From an uncultured Gemmatimonadales bacterium (GTDB taxonomy: Bacteria > Gemmatimonadota > Gemmatimonadetes > Longimicrobiales > RSA9): a stretch of DNA of 64,000 bases. The stretch lies in NCBI GenBank assembly GCA_963783305.1, contig CAWAMW010000002.1:800001-864000 (forward strand), in the 5' to 3' direction. Each line of letters begins with the position of its first letter. Position 1 is the first letter of the stretch. Of the stretch, positions 37,935 through 45,757 are shown one piece after another. The notes beneath the pieces were generated by a model. The model was given only the letters and a program-made list of their open reading frames with translations, was not told the DNA's origin and did no database searches. The position numbers and the translations under genes are program-made.

Positions 37935-38336
37935 ATGGACGAGCGGGCGACGCGAGAGGAACTCAACCGGCGGTACTGGGAGTCTGACGAGTCGGTCTCC
38001 GGGATCGCCGATTCCCTGGACGTCTCCCGCCGCGCGCTGTACGACGCCATCGATCCACAGCCGGCTGACGCGGCGTGTCCCGCGTGTGGCGGGGCGCTGG
38101 GGTTCCGGAACCGGACCAGCGCCGAAAACCGGGAAGCGGAGTGCCAGGAGTGTGGGAACGAAGTCCGGCTCGACCGCGACCGGGGTGACGCAGAGCCCGT
38201 CGAGCAGGAGCGCGTGGTGGGATCGCTATCTCCCGTGCCGAGATCGACGCCCGGCAGCGGACCTGCGGCGGGTGTCATGCTGCTGCTGGGAATGGCTTTG
38301 GGCGCGGGCGCCGCGTACTTCTTCCGCCGCGCGTGA
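37935..38336 (+). CDS. Small HTH + zinc-ribbon protein with C-terminal TM anchor
   Basis: SVSGIADSLDVSRRALY, CPAC...CQEC and a C-terminal hydrophobic helix. Confidence 0.7.
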   Translation: MDERATREELNRRYWESDESVSGIADSLDVSRRALYDAIDPQPADAACPACGGALGFRNRTSAENREAECQECGNEVRLDRDRGDAEPVEQERVVGSLSPVPRSTPGSGPAAGVMLLLGMALGAGAAYFFRRA

Positions 38337-39710: not shown

Positions 39711-39989
39711 TCAATGCACGGCGTCGATGGTGCGGGCCAGATCGAAGTCCCGGCCGGTGAGACCGCCCTCGCTGTGGGTCGAAAGGGAGCAGGCCACACG
39801 ATCGAAGCGGATGTCGATGTCCGGGTGGTGGTCGGCCTTCTGTGCGACCTCCGCGATCCGATTGACGAAAGCGATCGCCTCGGGGAAGGTGTCGAGCGTA
39901 TACGTCTTTCGGATCACGTCCCCTTCACGGGTCCAGCCGCGGAGCTCATCCAGTCGTGTGCGGATCTCCTGGTCATCGAGCAATCTCAT
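39711..39989 (-). CDS. phhB: Pterin-4-alpha-carbinolamine dehydratase
   Basis: DHHPDI...LSTHSEGGLT..DFDLA. Confidence 0.9.
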   Translation of the reverse strand: MRLLDDQEIRTRLDELRGWTREGDVIRKTYTLDTFPEAIAFVNRIAEVAQKADHHPDIDIRFDRVACSLSTHSEGGLTGRDFDLARTIDAVH

Positions 39990-40121: not shown

Positions 40122-41093
40122 GTGACGGATTTGCTAATCACCGGCGCGACCGGCTTCGTCGGATCGCATCTCGTCGAAGCGCTGGCTCGTGGTGGTACCC
40201 GGGCCCGAGCGCTGGTGCGCCCGAGCAGTGACACCTCGCTGCTCGAGCGGCACGACATCACGCCGGTCATTGGCAGCCTCCAGGACGTAGACTCCCTCCG
40301 CCGTGCGCTGGGGGATGCCTCCGTCGTGGTTCACCTGGCGGCGGCGACCCGCGCCCTCACGGAGGCGGATTTCCATCGCGTGAACGCGCGCGGCACCGAG
40401 CGGCTGCTGGACGCGATGGAAGCGGATGGTGGGCGGCGGCGGATGGTGTACCTCAGCTCCCTGGCCGCGGTGGGCCCGACGCGGGGCCGCCCGGTGCGGC
40501 CGGACGATGACCCGCACCCGCTGACGCCGTACGGTAGGAGCAAGCTCGAGGGCGAGCGTGCGGCGCTCTCCCGGGAGGGCATGGACGTGGCGGTGCTGCG
40601 TCCGCCGGCGGTGTACGGCCCGCGGGACCGTGACCTGTTCACCTTCTTCAGGATGGCGCGATGGCATGTGCTGCCGACGGCGGGTCCTTCCGACCGGCCA
40701 ATGCAGCTCGTGTATGCGCCCGACCTGGCGGACGCGATCACGGCCGCGGCGGAACCCGGCGCGGCGACGGGGGTGTTCCACGTGGCCGAGCCGAGGGAGT
40801 ACCCGTGGTCGGAAGTGATCCGGCTGGTGGGCGCGGCCGTGGATCGCCGGACGGTGGTGGTGCGGGTGCCGGACGTGCTGGTGAAGGCGGCCGCGACGCT
40901 CACCGAGGCGCTGGCGCGGCGGGCGGGCAGAGCGGTTATCTTCGACCGCGCCAAGGCCCGGGAGCTACTCGCGCCCGGATGGACCTGTGAAACGGAATCT
41001 GCGCGGCTCGGACTCGGGTTCGAAGCGCCGACACCACTGGCGGAAGGTCTGGAGAAAACCGCACGGTGGTACAGGGCGAATGGCTGGCTTTGA
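40122..41093 (+). CDS. NAD-dependent epimerase/reductase (candidate ceramide reductase, CerR-like)
   Basis: TGATGFVG, YLSS, YGRSK (YxxxK) and RPPAVYGP; first gene of the spt operon. The CerR role is inferred from context. Confidence 0.8.
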   Translation: MTDLLITGATGFVGSHLVEALARGGTRARALVRPSSDTSLLERHDITPVIGSLQDVDSLRRALGDASVVVHLAAATRALTEADFHRVNARGTERLLDAMEADGGRRRMVYLSSLAAVGPTRGRPVRPDDDPHPLTPYGRSKLEGERAALSREGMDVAVLRPPAVYGPRDRDLFTFFRMARWHVLPTAGPSDRPMQLVYAPDLADAITAAAEPGAATGVFHVAEPREYPWSEVIRLVGAAVDRRTVVVRVPDVLVKAAATLTEALARRAGRAVIFDRAKARELLAPGWTCETESARLGLGFEAPTPLAEGLEKTARWYRANGWL

Positions 41094-41120
41094 GTCGTTG
41101 GAGCGATAGCTGGGGGGTCG

Positions 41121-42302
41121 ATGAGTCTGTTCGATAAGTGCTACGGGTACACGACGGCCCGGGAGGTCGAGGCCACCGGGTACTACCCGTATTTCCGGGC
41201 CATCTCCGAATCGCATGACACGGAAGTGGTCGTGGAGGGTCACCGGAAGGTGATGGTCGGCTCCAACAATTACCTGGGGCTCACGCACCACCCCCGGGTG
41301 CTGGCCGCGGCGGAGGAGGCGCTGCGGCGGTATGGCAGCGGCTGCACCGGCAGCCGGTTCCTCAACGGCACCCTGGACCTGCACGAGCGTCTCGAGGACG
41401 AGCTCGCGGCGTTCCTCGGGAAGGAGTCGGCGCTCGTGTTCAGCACCGGTTTCCAGACGAACCTGGGCGTTATTGCGAGTCTGGCCGGGCGCGGGGACCA
41501 CATCTTCAGCGACAAGTTGAACCATGCCAGCATCGTGGATGGACTCCGCCTCTCCTACGGGGAGTCCCACCGCTACGGGCACGCGGACATGGAAGGGCTC
41601 GAGCGTCGGCTGAAGAGCGTGCCGGAGGAGGCGGGCAAGATGATCGTCACGGACGGCATCTTCTCCATGGAGGGTGACATCGCGCCGCTCCCGGCCATCA
41701 CCTCGCTGGCGAAGGTGCATGGCGCGAAGGTGGTGGTCGATGACGCGCACGCGTTCGGGGTCCTGGGTCGCACGGGAGCGGGCACGGCGGAGCACTTCGG
41801 CCTGGTAGACGAGGTGGACCTGATCGTGACCACGTTCTCGAAGTCGCTGGCGTCCATTGGGGGCGTGGTGGCCGGCCCCGAGGCGGTGATCCACTACCTG
41901 AAGCACCACGCGCGTCCGCTCATCTTCAGCGCGAGCATGCCGCCATCGGCGGTGGCGACCGTGCTGGCCGCGCTGGACGTGCTGAGGACGGAGCCGGAGC
42001 GGCTGGAGTCGCTCTGGCGCAACACGCGCAGGATGCAGGCGGGGCTGAAGGACCTCGGCTACGACATCGGGGACAGCGAGACGCCGGTGGTGCCCGTGGT
42101 GATCGGCGAGCTCGACCGGATGCTCATGTTCTGGAAGGAGCTCTTCGACGCCGGCGTCTTCACGAACCCGGTCACTCCGCCGGCGGTGCCCGAGGACTCC
42201 TGCCGTCTCCGTATCTCCCTGATGGCCACGCATACGGACGACCACATCGACCAGGTCCTCGAGGCCTTCTCGCAGGTGGGCAGGCAGATGGCGGTCATCT
42301 GA
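41121..42302 (+). CDS. spt: Alpha-oxoamine synthase, probable serine palmitoyltransferase
   Basis: GSNNYLGL, GCTGSRFLNGT, NHASI, DDAH, TFSKSLASIGG (PLP Lys) and IFSASMPP. Confidence 0.8.
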   Translation: MSLFDKCYGYTTAREVEATGYYPYFRAISESHDTEVVVEGHRKVMVGSNNYLGLTHHPRVLAAAEEALRRYGSGCTGSRFLNGTLDLHERLEDELAAFLGKESALVFSTGFQTNLGVIASLAGRGDHIFSDKLNHASIVDGLRLSYGESHRYGHADMEGLERRLKSVPEEAGKMIVTDGIFSMEGDIAPLPAITSLAKVHGAKVVVDDAHAFGVLGRTGAGTAEHFGLVDEVDLIVTTFSKSLASIGGVVAGPEAVIHYLKHHARPLIFSASMPPSAVATVLAALDVLRTEPERLESLWRNTRRMQAGLKDLGYDIGDSETPVVPVVIGELDRMLMFWKELFDAGVFTNPVTPPAVPEDSCRLRISLMATHTDDHIDQVLEAFSQVGRQMAVI

Positions 42303-42304
42303 CG

Positions 42305-43453
42305 ATGCCCGAACAGGCCCACTCCCCGCTGACGGTGGTACCCGCGCGGGAGCGGTCGACCCGTGCACGCTTCATCGGCCTGCCGTGGGACATCTACGCC
42401 GGGGATGAGGCCTGGGTCCCACCCCTCCGCTCCGATGTGCGCAAGCTCATGGACCCGGCGCACCCCTTCCACGAGCACGCGGACGCCGAGTTCTTCCTGG
42501 CACTGGACGGGGACGGTAGGGCTGTGGGGCGGATCGCGGCGGTGGTGAACCGGCTGTACAACGAGTTCCACGACAGTCGAACGGGGTTCATCGGCCTGTT
42601 CGAGTCGGTGGACGATGGGAGTGTGGCGAGGGCGCTGCTGGAGACGGCCAGCGACTGGCTGCGGGCACGGGGGATGACGGAGGTCATGGGCCCGTTCAAC
42701 CTGTCGACCAACGACGAACTGTACTCGCCGGGGATCCTGCTGGACTCCTTCGACCAGCCGCCCGTCCTGCTCATGGCCCACAACCCGCCATACTATCGTC
42801 GACTGTTCGAGGAAGCCGGGTGGGAGAAGCGGAAGGACCTTCTGTCCTACTGGATGGAAGAGGAGACGGCCCCGCCGGAGCGGCTGGTGGAGGGGATGCG
42901 CCGCCTGGCGGATCGGGTGGACGGGCTGGTCGTGCGGCAGCTTCGTCTGAAAGAGCTGGACCGCGAGGTGGAGCGGATCAGGGAAGTGTACAACTCGGCG
43001 TGGGAGCGGAACTGGGGGTTCACTCCGCTGACCAATGCCGAGATCGAGCACCTCGCGTCGGATCTGAAACCCATCGTGGACGAGCGGTATGCGCTCATCG
43101 CCGAGGTCCACGGCGAGCCGGTGGGCTTCGCGCTCGCCCTTCCGGACTACAACCAGGCACTCCGCCACGTGAATGGCCGACTCTTTCCGCTGGGCATCCT
43201 GAAGCTCCTCTGGTACCGCCGAAAGATCAATCGGCTGCGCGTGCTCACCCTTGGCCTCAAGCCGGGGTACCAGCGGAAGGGCATCGATGCCCTCTTCTAC
43301 CTCAAGATCTATCAGAACGGGCTCGCCGCCGGTCTGCATCAGGCCGAGGCATCATGGATCCTGGAGGACAACTGGGGCATGCGGCGTGGGCTGGAGCGGA
43401 TGGGCGCCTACGTGTACAAAACCTACCGGGTCTACGGCACGGAGCTTGGCTGA
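42305..43453 (+). CDS. YghO-like GNAT acyltransferase (candidate bacterial ceramide synthase, bCerS)
   Basis: WVPPL...HPF, GRIAA, GFIGLFE, GPFNLSTNDE, NPPYY, AWERNWGF and SWILEDN; starts 2 nt after spt. Confidence 0.75.
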   Translation: MPEQAHSPLTVVPARERSTRARFIGLPWDIYAGDEAWVPPLRSDVRKLMDPAHPFHEHADAEFFLALDGDGRAVGRIAAVVNRLYNEFHDSRTGFIGLFESVDDGSVARALLETASDWLRARGMTEVMGPFNLSTNDELYSPGILLDSFDQPPVLLMAHNPPYYRRLFEEAGWEKRKDLLSYWMEEETAPPERLVEGMRRLADRVDGLVVRQLRLKELDREVERIREVYNSAWERNWGFTPLTNAEIEHLASDLKPIVDERYALIAEVHGEPVGFALALPDYNQALRHVNGRLFPLGILKLLWYRRKINRLRVLTLGLKPGYQRKGIDALFYLKIYQNGLAAGLHQAEASWILEDNWGMRRGLERMGAYVYKTYRVYGTELG

Positions 43454-44306
43454 CCCTTCCGCATCCCCCGTCGACCGGCTGCTGGGCGGCTACCTCCTCC
43501 TCACCGCCCTCGCGGTGGCGTTCCCGCACAGGCCGGAAGGCTGGCCAGTCCTGCTTTCCGCCCACCTGGCGCTGGGGCTGGCGCTCCTCGCGGGCGCTCC
43601 CCACCGGATCCAGGCGACCACGCGATCCAAGCCGATCCGCGTTCTCGTCGACTGGTACCCGCTGCTTCTCATGCCCGCGCTGTACTGGGAGCTGCCGATG
43701 CTTGGTGGCTCGCTCTGGGGCGGCCATTTCTTCGATGCCGTGGTCCAGAGCTGGGAAGCCCGACTGTTCGGCGGTCAGCCGAGCGCGGATTTGGCGGGGC
43801 GCTTGCCCTGGCTGCCGCTCTCAGAGCTGCTGCACCTCTTCTATCTCGCCTACTACCCCGTCATCTACCTCTTTCCGGCGGTGCTGTACATCCGTGGACG
43901 GAGGGAGTCGTTCCGGGCCACGGTGTTCGCCGTCATGTTCGGCTTCACGGCCTGCTACGTGGTCTTCACGCTCTTTCCCGTGCAGGGGCCCCGCTACCTC
44001 TTCCCCGCACCGGGCGGGGCTCCCGCCGATGGCTGGGTGTACCAGCTGACCCACCGGATCCTCGAGAACGGGTCCAGCCAGGGTGCGGCGTTCCCATCCT
44101 CCCACGCGGCGATCGCCGCCGTGCAGACGGTGAACGCGCGCCGATACCTGCCTAAGGCGACCCCGCTCCTGGCGCTGATCACCGCGGGGATCTGCGCGGG
44201 GGCGGTGTACGGCGGCTTCCACTACGGCATCGATATGGTGATCGGTGCGGCGTTCGGGTTCTTCCTGGGCTGGCTGGCGCCCTCCGCTCGCCGGGCGCTG
44301 GCGTGA
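43446..44306 (+). CDS. PAP2/Aur1-like integral membrane phosphotransferase or phosphatase
   Basis: Multiple TMs; FPVQGPR, AAFPSSH and HYGID motifs. TTG start overlaps the upstream gene. Confidence 0.8.
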   Translation: MADPSASPVDRLLGGYLLLTALAVAFPHRPEGWPVLLSAHLALGLALLAGAPHRIQATTRSKPIRVLVDWYPLLLMPALYWELPMLGGSLWGGHFFDAVVQSWEARLFGGQPSADLAGRLPWLPLSELLHLFYLAYYPVIYLFPAVLYIRGRRESFRATVFAVMFGFTACYVVFTLFPVQGPRYLFPAPGGAPADGWVYQLTHRILENGSSQGAAFPSSHAAIAAVQTVNARRYLPKATPLLALITAGICAGAVYGGFHYGIDMVIGAAFGFFLGWLAPSARRALA

Positions 44307-45046
44307 ACCGGCGACTCGGGTGGGCGGTGGGGCTTGGAACAGCGGCCATCACGCTTGGGCTCTGGCTCGTACTGGAGGGGCTGCCGTGGCCGTCCCGCTC
44401 CTTCACCGTGGTGCTGCTGGGGCCGCTCCCGGCGCTGATGCTGCTGCAGGCCCGGATGGTGGACCGCATGCCGCAGGAAGCGGAGCGCGAGGCGGTATAT
44501 GTGTCCTCGGCCGTCACCGTGTGGCTCCTGGCCGGGCTGGCAATGCTGGCCGCGCGCCTGAGCGGAATCACCCGTGAGGAGCTGCGACTCGTCGACCTGC
44601 CGGTCGGCACTCTCCTTCTCGCCGCCGGGGTGACCGTGGGAGCGGGTGTGGCGATCATGGCGGTGGGCAAGCTCGTGCGGGTCCCCGAGTCCGACCTGCT
44701 GGGGTACCTGATACCCCGGAGCGGCAGCGAGAGGATCGCATTCACCGGACTCTCCATCTCGGCGGGGATCGCCGAGGAGCTCGTCTATCGCAGCTTCCTG
44801 ATCTCGGCCGTCACCGCGGCGGCCGGGTCCCTCGCCGTCGGGGCGGCCGTGAGCGTGGGGGCATTCGCGATTTCCCACGCGTATCAGGGTGTTCTCGGCG
44901 TGCTGCGCGTAGCACTCCTCGGGCTCGTTCTCACGGCTCCGTTCCTGCTCACCGGCAGCGTCTATCCCGCCATGATCGCCCACGCCTCGCTCGACCTCCT
45001 GGCCGGTCTCGTCCTGGCCGACTGGCTCCTGCCCGACGGGGACTGA
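44303..45046 (+). CDS. CPBP (Abi/CAAX) intramembrane protease
   Basis: EELVYRS, FAISHAYQG and MIAHASLD. Confidence 0.88.
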   Translation: MNRRLGWAVGLGTAAITLGLWLVLEGLPWPSRSFTVVLLGPLPALMLLQARMVDRMPQEAEREAVYVSSAVTVWLLAGLAMLAARLSGITREELRLVDLPVGTLLLAAGVTVGAGVAIMAVGKLVRVPESDLLGYLIPRSGSERIAFTGLSISAGIAEELVYRSFLISAVTAAAGSLAVGAAVSVGAFAISHAYQGVLGVLRVALLGLVLTAPFLLTGSVYPAMIAHASLDLLAGLVLADWLLPDGD

Positions 45047-45346: not shown

Positions 45347-45757
45347 ATGATCCTGCGACTTTCGTTCGAAGAAATGACGGCGCTCAACTCCGCGGCGCAG
45401 CGGCTGTTCGACGCGACCGGTGGTGGGACCGTGCTGGCCCCGCCCGAGGCGATGGCGGAGCTGGAGTCCCGCCTTCCGCTGGAGGGCGACATCTCGGTAA
45501 AGACGCTGCCCGAGCAGTTCCGGCTGAGCGGTGCCGTCGCGATGATCCTCGACGACCTGAAGCTGCGCATGGACAGGTTCATCGTAGAGCAGTACGTGGG
45601 CTCCGAGGACGCGGTCAACGCGTACTTCGATTATGCCAACGTGCTCGCGGCCCAGGCGCGGCTCATGGGTCTCCGGCACGAGATGGAGGCCCTGGCGGAG
45701 ATCATGGCGGGCGACGATCCGGCCCAGCGACTGGAGGGGATCACGTTCCCGGATTGA
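45347..45757 (+). CDS. Hypothetical helical protein
   Basis: GGAGG RBS before ATG 45347; protein-like composition. Confidence 0.7.
   Translation: MILRLSFEEMTALNSAAQRLFDATGGGTVLAPPEAMAELESRLPLEGDISVKTLPEQFRLSGAVAMILDDLKLRMDRFIVEQYVGSEDAVNAYFDYANVLAAQARLMGLRHEMEALAEIMAGDDPAQRLEGITFPD

Follow-up and report, generated by a model that had tools for sequence, protein, structure and literature searches.

The window analysed here, a 64,000-nucleotide stretch (G000:C2:800001-864000) of the genome of an uncultured Gemmatimonadales bacterium (G000; 4.35 Mb, 96% complete, 3844 called proteins), carries at positions 40122-45046 a genuine, conserved gene cluster that we read as a ceramide operon; it includes a likely transferase of head groups from a branch of the PAP2_3 family outside the BT_1522 equivalog of Bacteroides thetaiotaomicron. 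By the names of its closest homologs, the host belongs to the Longimicrobiales (Gemmatimonadota). The products of its first three genes very probably make the ceramide backbone, and the fourth, an Aur1-like membrane enzyme, probably acts on that ceramide. As the best explanation we tentatively propose that the first four genes form a phosphosphingolipid pathway whose head group is most likely inositol phosphate from phosphatidylinositol (PI). The fifth gene, encoding a CPBP protease, is probably a family-specific, co-transcribed passenger and not a pathway member.

Organization of the operon

Five open reading frames (ORFs), all on the + strand and tightly packed, make up the operon:

40122-41093, + strand: extended short-chain dehydrogenase/reductase (SDR), predicted ceramide reductase CerR, 323 aa (PF01370; TGATGFVG and YGRSK motifs)
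41121-42302, + strand: α-oxoamine synthase (AOS), predicted serine palmitoyltransferase Spt of Bacteroidota type, 393 aa (PF00155; H135, D207/H210, and the PLP lysine K241 in TFSKS)
42305-43453, + strand: YghO-type GNAT, predicted bacterial ceramide synthase bCerS, 382 aa (PF00583, weak)
43446-44306, + strand: membrane enzyme of the PAP2_3 family (Aur1/Ipt1 type), predicted to transfer a phospho-head group to ceramide, 286 aa (PF14378, 68 bits)
44303-45046, + strand: CPBP (Rce1-like) intramembrane protease, 247 aa (PF02517; EExxxR, FxxxH and HxxxD intact)

The junctions are, in gene order, a 27-nt gap, a 2-nt gap, an 8-nt overlap and a 4-nt overlap. The five contiguous or overlapping genes described by a first-pass annotation, which had been made from the sequence alone, were thus recovered at the span that it had given. 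For the PAP2 gene the most plausible start is the TTG at 43446, which yields 286 aa, and an identical 286-aa product is present in the protein database. A divergent gene on the opposite strand (39711-39989) lies upstream of the operon and a 300-nt gap follows the CPBP gene. A scan for promoters and terminators gave nothing above shuffled sequences (sigma-70 sites, 0 against 0.7 in shuffles; terminator-like sites, 3 against 2.4), so that co-transcription is argued from gene spacing only. The order reductase-spt-cerS-PAP2 was found again in 40 of 80 PAP2 loci from GTDB genomes (here and below the best 80 of 253 loci, several of them on contigs that also enter another locus comparison), which argues that the arrangement is not due to chance.

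Predicted genes for ceramide synthesis

The first-pass annotation had read the second gene as an Spt-type synthase and had named a phylogeny against Spt, BioF and Kbl as the check. Profiles, solved structures and the tree all place the enzyme with bacterial Spt rather than with BioF, Kbl or ALAS. Among NCBIfam models it scored best on the Bacteroidota Spt model NF047600 (546 bits, against 415 for bioF and 398 for Kbl), which is below the cut-off of 640 bits, so it is no formal member of that equivalog; the betaproteobacterial and alphaproteobacterial Spt models gave 412 and 351 bits. In the Protein Data Bank (PDB) the serine palmitoyltransferase structures 3a2b and 8guh, which we take to come from Sphingobacterium, ranked first (453 bits, E 8e-135), ahead of Kbl (273 bits, E 4e-80), cysteate acyltransferase (249 bits) and BioF (234 bits, E 3e-68). 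In a tree of 22 rows, none of them dropped, the enzyme formed a clade with other Gemmatimonadota operon copies (support 100/99), the Spt of E. coli BL21 stood next (97/92), and BioF and Kbl fell outside; the tree holds one characterised Spt, and BioF and two further rows are long branches. Identity as BioF or Kbl was rejected on these three lines. The genome holds two more AOS genes, one of which groups with Kbl and adjoins a threonine-dehydrogenase-like gene. A second conserved oxoamine synthase with a clade of its own, coupled to a zinc-dependent alcohol dehydrogenase, was noticed at G000:C2:625121-627590 and also in loci L158, L159 and L160.

As reference for the ceramide genes we used the cluster of E. 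coli BL21, in which Spt is biochemically active, yghO is the listed acyltransferase and the epimerase gene epi the listed reductase (PMC9386255). Queried with that Spt, the G000 proteins gave the product of 41121-42302 as best match. The YghO-like protein shares 34% identity with E. coli BL21 YghO over 367 of 380 aa (E 1e-72) and is the sole match of YghO in a search of all 3844 proteins; it passes the bCerS homology filter of PMC11334938 (E <= 1e-30, at least 50% cover) and is linked to spt. Likewise, the SDR is the top match in G000 to the CerR-like protein of E. coli BL21 (32% over 289 aa, E 1e-31; runner-up SDR, 2e-17), and since no other extended SDR of the genome comes closer to a CerR from an established cluster, and it too is linked to spt, it is assigned to CerR. 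Both assignments had been anticipated in the first-pass annotation and are supported. The CerR candidate begins at its Rossmann motif, with no N-terminal extension and no visible signal peptide. Because the operon contains neither an acyl carrier protein (ACP) gene nor one encoding an acyl-ACP synthetase, the acyl donor is probably acyl-CoA.

Elsewhere in the genome, a distant relative of the GNAT (25%) lies in a lipid cluster at G000:C16:218116-222976, near acyl-CoA-ligase-like, MMPL-like transporter and phytol-kinase-like genes, labels that were given by reading the sequences.

An Aur1-like enzyme encoded by the fourth gene

The PAP2 protein belongs to the Aur1/Ipt1 type (PAP2_3), with PF14378 above cut-off, a His-His-Asp triad and Aur1-like N-terminal helices. 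AFPSSH occupies residues 215-220 (H220 at 44103-44105) and HYGID residues 259-263 (H259 at 44220-44222, D263 at 44232-44234). This triad is invariant among 127 aligned homologs, and its spacing (39 residues from His to His, 4 from His to Asp) is identical to that of H255, H294 and D298 of Aur1, each of which is essential (PMC13133130). A single-sequence search of the PDB returned chance matches only and a profile was needed for real ones, the best being Aur1, aligned without gaps over its residues 246-313 (E 3e-4), a narrow lead over LpxE (E 7e-4). In the Aur1 alignment, the PAP2 protein has G-A where LpxE has E-R and B. subtilis PgpB has S-R, and F258 takes the position of Aur1 H293.

PAP2 lipid phosphatases are defined by the motifs C1 (K-x6-RP) and C3 (SR-x5-H-x3-D). 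Among 150 representative PAP2 homologs, C1 occurred in none and C3, searched as [ST]R-x5-H-x3-D, in one, and the C3 arginine is visible in both LpxE and PgpB in the PDB alignment; by these two motifs, the protein is not a lipid phosphomonoesterase of the LpxE and PgpB kind. Its AlphaFold model (pLDDT 96) found as best fold match the Aur1-ceramide complex 9vj4 (E 1.5e-5, TMq 0.61; LpxE 0.37, SMSr 0.33). In VIA comparisons the model gave Z 17.8 with Aur1 (rmsd 4.7, 254 aligned, model residues 4-282), 16.7 with LpxE (rmsd 2.7, 161 aligned, model residues 98-281) and 10.4 with SMSr, and its N-terminal helices were covered by Aur1 only, not by LpxE. Triad spacing, the missing C1 and C3 residues and the whole-length Aur1 fold support the earlier proposal of an Aur1-like transferase as opposed to a phosphatase. 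Short K/R-rich loops (49-67, 147-157 and 229-238) alternate with the triad loops, and these loop charges suggest that the triad lies on the periplasmic face, a predicted placement that fits the periplasmic CerR step reported in Caulobacter (PMC11087976).

Two members of the subfamily are fusions, P0242 to an LPG-synthase-type membrane domain (549 aa) and P0196 to an unassigned C-terminal half (638 aa). Proteins of two cultured species also fall in the subfamily, J421_0797 of Gemmatirosa kalamazoonensis (P0272) and P0286 of Roseisolibacter agri.

Linkage and distribution in Gemmatimonadota

Of the 80 PAP2 loci, 69 contain cerS or spt. Their gene orders number at least four and include, besides the order of the window, spt-cerS-reductase-PAP2, cerS-reductase-PAP2 and PAP2 divergent from cerS-spt. 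Phylum-wide tallies came from 301 genomes drawn across Gemmatimonadota, in which kin are not independent, so that Fisher tests on the tallies are not read as probabilities, and the unpublished G185 is included, no claim resting on it alone. The PAP2 gene was present in 156 of them and spt in 164, with both in 147, PAP2 only in 9, spt only in 17 and neither in 128. In the family of the window, all 24 genomes have the PAP2 gene and 21 an spt ortholog; the PAP2 gene was found in 1 of 8 genomes of family f2 and 0 of 8 of family f3. Both genes are rare in family f5 (PAP2 in 6 and spt in 7 of 70 genomes), where an spt ortholog is present in four of the six PAP2 genomes. In the remaining two, PAP2 is flanked by cerS and by a fusion of fatty acyl-AMP ligase (FAAL), ACP and AOS.

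The nine PAP2-only genomes include two with FAAL-AOS and cerS, two with reductase neighbours and two (G073 and G285) in which the gene is near a contig start; seven of the nine loci were read, G073 and G285 being left out, and that of G314 was unresolved by the gene caller. In G014, spt-cerS has been lost locally, yet another TFSKS-type AOS lies elsewhere in the genome. FAAL-ACP-AOS fusions (1100-1600 aa) beside PAP2, cerS and reductase recur at L141:8083-11397, L150, L152, L155, L163 and L164, where they replace a stand-alone Spt. At L157:4042-9168 (G014) and L174:5876-7875 (G037), a TFSKS-type AOS is followed by an acetoacetate-decarboxylase-fold gene, and that of L157 is also accompanied by a diacylglycerol (DAG)/sphingosine-kinase-like gene and a CDP-alcohol transferase. 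In L039 (G019) cerS and PAP2 were read in pieces and in L175 (G155) PAP2 is in two pieces, which may be assembly errors or true breaks.

In four loci (L135, L137, L140 and L154) the PAP2 gene stands among fatty-acyl reductase, alkyl-dihydroxyacetone-phosphate (DHAP)-synthase-like or HAD genes. A candidate ether-lipid cluster of fatty acyl reductase, alkyl-DHAP-synthase-like oxidase, HAD phosphatase and YghO-type GNAT beside PAP2 is found at L137:1761-5750, L140 and L154/L161.

In eight of the 80 loci (L124, L127, L134, L135, L141, L147, L150 and L153), PAP2 and cerS are accompanied by genes for a GT4 glycosyltransferase, a deacetylase of NodB type and a flippase of LPG-synthase type; this cassette is a candidate for making a glucosaminyl-(phospho)sphingolipid. 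A likeness of this GT4 to PIG-A was tried and rejected, PF08288 being absent among its Pfam matches and its best NCBIfam match being BshA (113-123 of 274 bits). G000 has no ortholog of the cassette GT4 or NodB-type deacetylase (best 30% and 29%). In family f3, which has no PAP2 gene, a GT4 and a flippase directly follow cerS in 3 of 8 loci; their orthologs in G000 lie at G000:C7:12531-16977, where two GT4 genes, the LPG-synthase-type flippase and another PAP2 are clustered, so that ceramide or phosphatidylglycerol (PG) may also be turned into a glycosylated lipid in G000.

Candidate head-group donors

At G000:C11:76721-78695, a CDP-alcohol phosphatidyltransferase gene lies directly upstream of that for myo-inositol-1-phosphate synthase (MIPS). 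Its best matches are the inositol-phosphate synthase models (163/180, 145/350 and 134/170 bits, score/cut-off; pssA, 34), and it is under the cut-off of each. MIPS was found in 280 of the 301 genomes, lineages without spt included, and a transferase like phosphatidylinositol phosphate (PIP) synthase adjoins it in 4 of 6 MIPS loci checked, as it also does in G015 and G024. Given this near-universal pair, synthesis of PI or its phosphate looks phylum-wide and PI is an available and plausible donor. For dephosphorylation, five other PAP2 matches in G000 could serve as PIP phosphatase alongside the PIP-synthase-like gene and MIPS. The pair is near-universal in the phylum though PI goes unlisted in both chemotaxonomic descriptions cited below. 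lpxC is present in G000, so a sphingolipid would accompany lipopolysaccharide.

The CPBP protease and neighbouring genes

The first-pass annotation had counted the CPBP protease as part of the sphingolipid operon; a place for it in the pathway was not supported here. The catalytic motifs EExxxR, FxxxH and HxxxD are invariant, and CPBP lies beside PAP2 in 37 of 40 loci with the flanking genes of the window's family and in 0 of 28 without them, but conservation is about as high for unrelated flanking genes, present in 34 and 32 of the same 40 loci. Its subfamily occurs in 37 of 48 genomes of family f2 (spt in 0 of 48) and in 8 of 125 of family f4 (spt in 122 of 125). Membership in the pathway was rejected on this distribution opposite to spt and on the family-limited linkage. 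All cut-offs of the myxosortase-type models MrtS, MrtJ, Mrt_core and MrtA were missed (MrtS, 17.3 of 130 bits; best family E 1e-8).

Two small neighbours deserve mention. A gene for a 136-aa protein (45347-45757, + strand) is kept downstream in 34 of 40 loci of the window's family and gave no usable match in Pfam, NCBIfam or the ESM Atlas. A 133-aa protein (37935-38336, + strand), conserved upstream, has two CxxC pairs and a hydrophobic C-terminal tail ending in FFRRA, and gave no match in Pfam.

Discussion

Gene content, homology, motifs, fold, linkage and the pair of PIP synthase and MIPS are what was found; from known families we infer the chemistry. Spt would join serine to an acyl-thioester, with N-acylation of the product falling to the YghO-type GNAT and reduction of the 3-keto group to the SDR. 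The Aur1-like enzyme would transfer a phospho-head group to the ceramide, most likely inositol phosphate from PI. By analogy to Aur1, H259 activated by D263 would attack the donor phosphate with departure of diacylglycerol, and H220 would activate the 1-OH of ceramide. If the PAP2 enzyme does act on ceramide, PI is somewhat favoured as its donor.

Several observations weigh against this proposal. The VIA lead of Aur1 over LpxE is only about 1, and the PAP2 protein, with 25.5 bits on NF052609, the model for BT_1522, stays far below the cut-off of 480 and is no member of that equivalog (the homolog in L149 scores 29.8 against the same 480). Two genomes (G015 and G024; 95-96% complete, about 240-250 contigs) have an intact PAP2 gene and no spt ortholog was found in them, the locus of G024 being a clean local loss of reductase-spt-cerS with PAP2 kept; in G302 and three other loci the PAP2 gene stands in an ether-lipid-type cluster. 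As to the donor, MIPS is near-universal even where PAP2 is missing, so that PI is not singled out, and 4 of the 156 PAP2 genomes have no MIPS match, one of them explained by a contig end. Unlike BT_1522, the PAP2 gene is unlinked to inositol genes, and never linked to MIPS in the loci read; a PgpA-type PIP phosphatase was not found in G000 at its 96% completeness. PssA/Psd, PgsA and cardiolipin-synthase-like (phospholipase D family) genes in G000 make phosphatidylethanolamine (PE) and PG available donors, and thin-layer chromatography of two cultured Gemmatimonadota lists PE, PG, diphosphatidylglycerol (DPG) and an aminolipid, with PI unlisted (PMC11651109, PMC7844134; the main texts mention neither inositol nor sphingo- nor ceramide).

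The same ceramide pathway and transfer chemistry might instead draw on PE or PG, yielding ceramide phosphoethanolamine or ceramide phosphoglycerol, an alternative that we rate as rather unlikely. Cultured members are reported to have PE, PG and DPG as their major lipids, pssA-psd and pgsA are at hand in G000, the enzyme fails the BT_1522 model and has no MIPS linkage, Aur1 H293 is replaced by F258, and B. thetaiotaomicron itself makes ethanolamine phosphoceramide (EPC) with no EPC synthase homolog found there (PMC8791184). Set against this, the closest fold, Aur1, is PI-specific (PMC13133130), SMSr, which uses PE, matches much less well (TMq 0.33, Z 10.4) and the sole tested bacterial PAP2_3 enzyme of the kind uses PI (PMC9246714). 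It is unlikely that genes 1-3 make ceramide and PAP2 is a general head-group exchanger or phosphatase, with DAG or alkyl-acylglycerol as acceptor, able to work without ceramide. G015 and G024 would fit such a role, as would the fatty-acyl reductase and alkyl-DHAP-synthase-like neighbours in L137, L140 and L154/G302 and one homolog (P0151) that weakly matches the plant PDCT model; but the basic residues of phosphatase motifs C1 and C3 are lacking, 147 of 156 PAP2 genomes have an spt ortholog, two of the nine exceptions have FAAL-AOS and cerS, two have reductase neighbours and two lie near contig starts, and the linkage of PAP2 to ceramide genes persists through rearrangement.

We give little credence to an AOS that uses cysteate, alanine or glycine, or is BioF/Kbl after all, so that the pathway leads to a sulfonolipid or a 1-deoxy base, or forms no long-chain base. 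The missed cut-off (546 of 640 bits) leans that way and AOS substrates are not safely readable from sequence, but the structure search favours SPT (453 bits against 249 for cysteate acyltransferase, 273 for Kbl and 234 for BioF), a separate Kbl-like paralog sits beside the threonine-dehydrogenase-like gene, and a 1-deoxy or sulfonate base would lack the 1-OH for the linked transferase. Equally improbable is a working role for CPBP as fifth member, for instance as a sortase-like protease that would cut off a C-terminal signal and pass the protein on to a phosphosphingolipid, as in glycosylphosphatidylinositol (GPI) transamidase. Its gene overlaps the PAP2 stop by 1-13 nt in 16 of 37 junctions measured, PAP2 and CPBP remain together in G014 and G024 after loss of spt-cerS, and there are weak matches to myxosortase-type models; these scores are, however, far under cut-off (17 of 130 bits), genes intervene between PAP2 and CPBP in 8 of the 37 junctions, unrelated flanking genes are about equally conserved (34 and 32 of 40), and the distribution in f2 and f4 is opposite to that of spt.

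Returning to the inositol-phosphate pathway, the phylum-wide picture could be extended further, though we hold it improbable: about half of Gemmatimonadota genomes would make inositol-phosphoceramide (IPC) by an Aur1-like branch apart from BT_1522, and the relatives with the GlcNAc-transferase-like GT4, NodB and flippase would add glucosaminyl-inositol-phosphoceramide, a bacterial counterpart of the core of GPI and glycosylinositol phosphoceramide (GIPC).

Why should this operon matter? The prediction is that phosphosphingolipids, and inositol lipids more broadly, occur in a phylum that is widespread and mostly uncultured, which has a bearing on where the sphingolipids of soil and sediment lipidomes come from. 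The operon also offers a single-chain bacterial Aur1 relative with a directly testable donor. If the donor is PI, IPC synthesis would extend beyond Bacteroidota; if it is PE or PG, a bacterial enzyme would be in hand for a head-group reaction to which no gene of B. thetaiotaomicron had been assigned as of 2022. The pathway logic is already known. Added here are the phylum-wide co-occurrence of PAP2 and spt along with its exceptions, a candidate donor route through the pair of PIP synthase and MIPS, and the exclusion of CPBP from the pathway. The first-pass annotation had implied novelty, and our literature search found no report of sphingolipids or of this operon in Gemmatimonadota, although the supplement of PMC11334938 or Stankeviciute 2022 may already list the phylum among carriers of Spt, bCerS and CerR. 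The novelty was nevertheless overstated given the genetic precedent of BT_1522, the UniRef label of subfamily members, already [quoted passage not shown], and the Spt-like genes reported from 38 phyla of the Black Sea and from 40 altogether (PMC11334938, in whose main text "Gemmatimonad" is absent).

Comparison with known systems

Spt, bCerS and CerR of Caulobacter crescentus and E. coli BL21 (PMC11087976, PMC9386255) belong to the same three families and are clustered, each operon product being the best match in G000 to the E. coli BL21 protein. The Gemmatimonadota operon differs in being without an AcpR or AasR gene, in an Spt nearer to the Bacteroidota model than to those of Proteobacteria, and in the Aur1-type enzyme that follows where the E. 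coli BL21 locus has LptFG paralogs. [quoted passage not shown] With S. cerevisiae Aur1 (9vj4, 9ivc; PMC13133130), it has in common the whole-length fold (TMq 0.61), AFPSxH, HYxxD, the triad spacing and a predicted extracytoplasmic site, whereas identity is about 18-20%, H293 becomes F and a Kei1 partner is not expected (no search for one was made). The nearest bacterial precedent is BT_1522, an Aur1 homolog of B. thetaiotaomicron whose loss removes PI-dihydroceramide (PMC9246714, PMC8791184). As in the BT_1522-1526 cluster, an Aur1-homologous enzyme is accompanied in its genome by Spt, a predicted PIP synthase and MIPS, and some PAP2 relatives are paired or fused with an LPG-synthase-type membrane domain just as BT_1521 flanks BT_1522; in contrast to that cluster, NF052609 scores only 25.5 of 480 bits, no counterpart of the PgpA-type phosphatase BT_1525 was found in G000, and the Gemmatimonadota enzyme is tied to ceramide genes instead of inositol genes.

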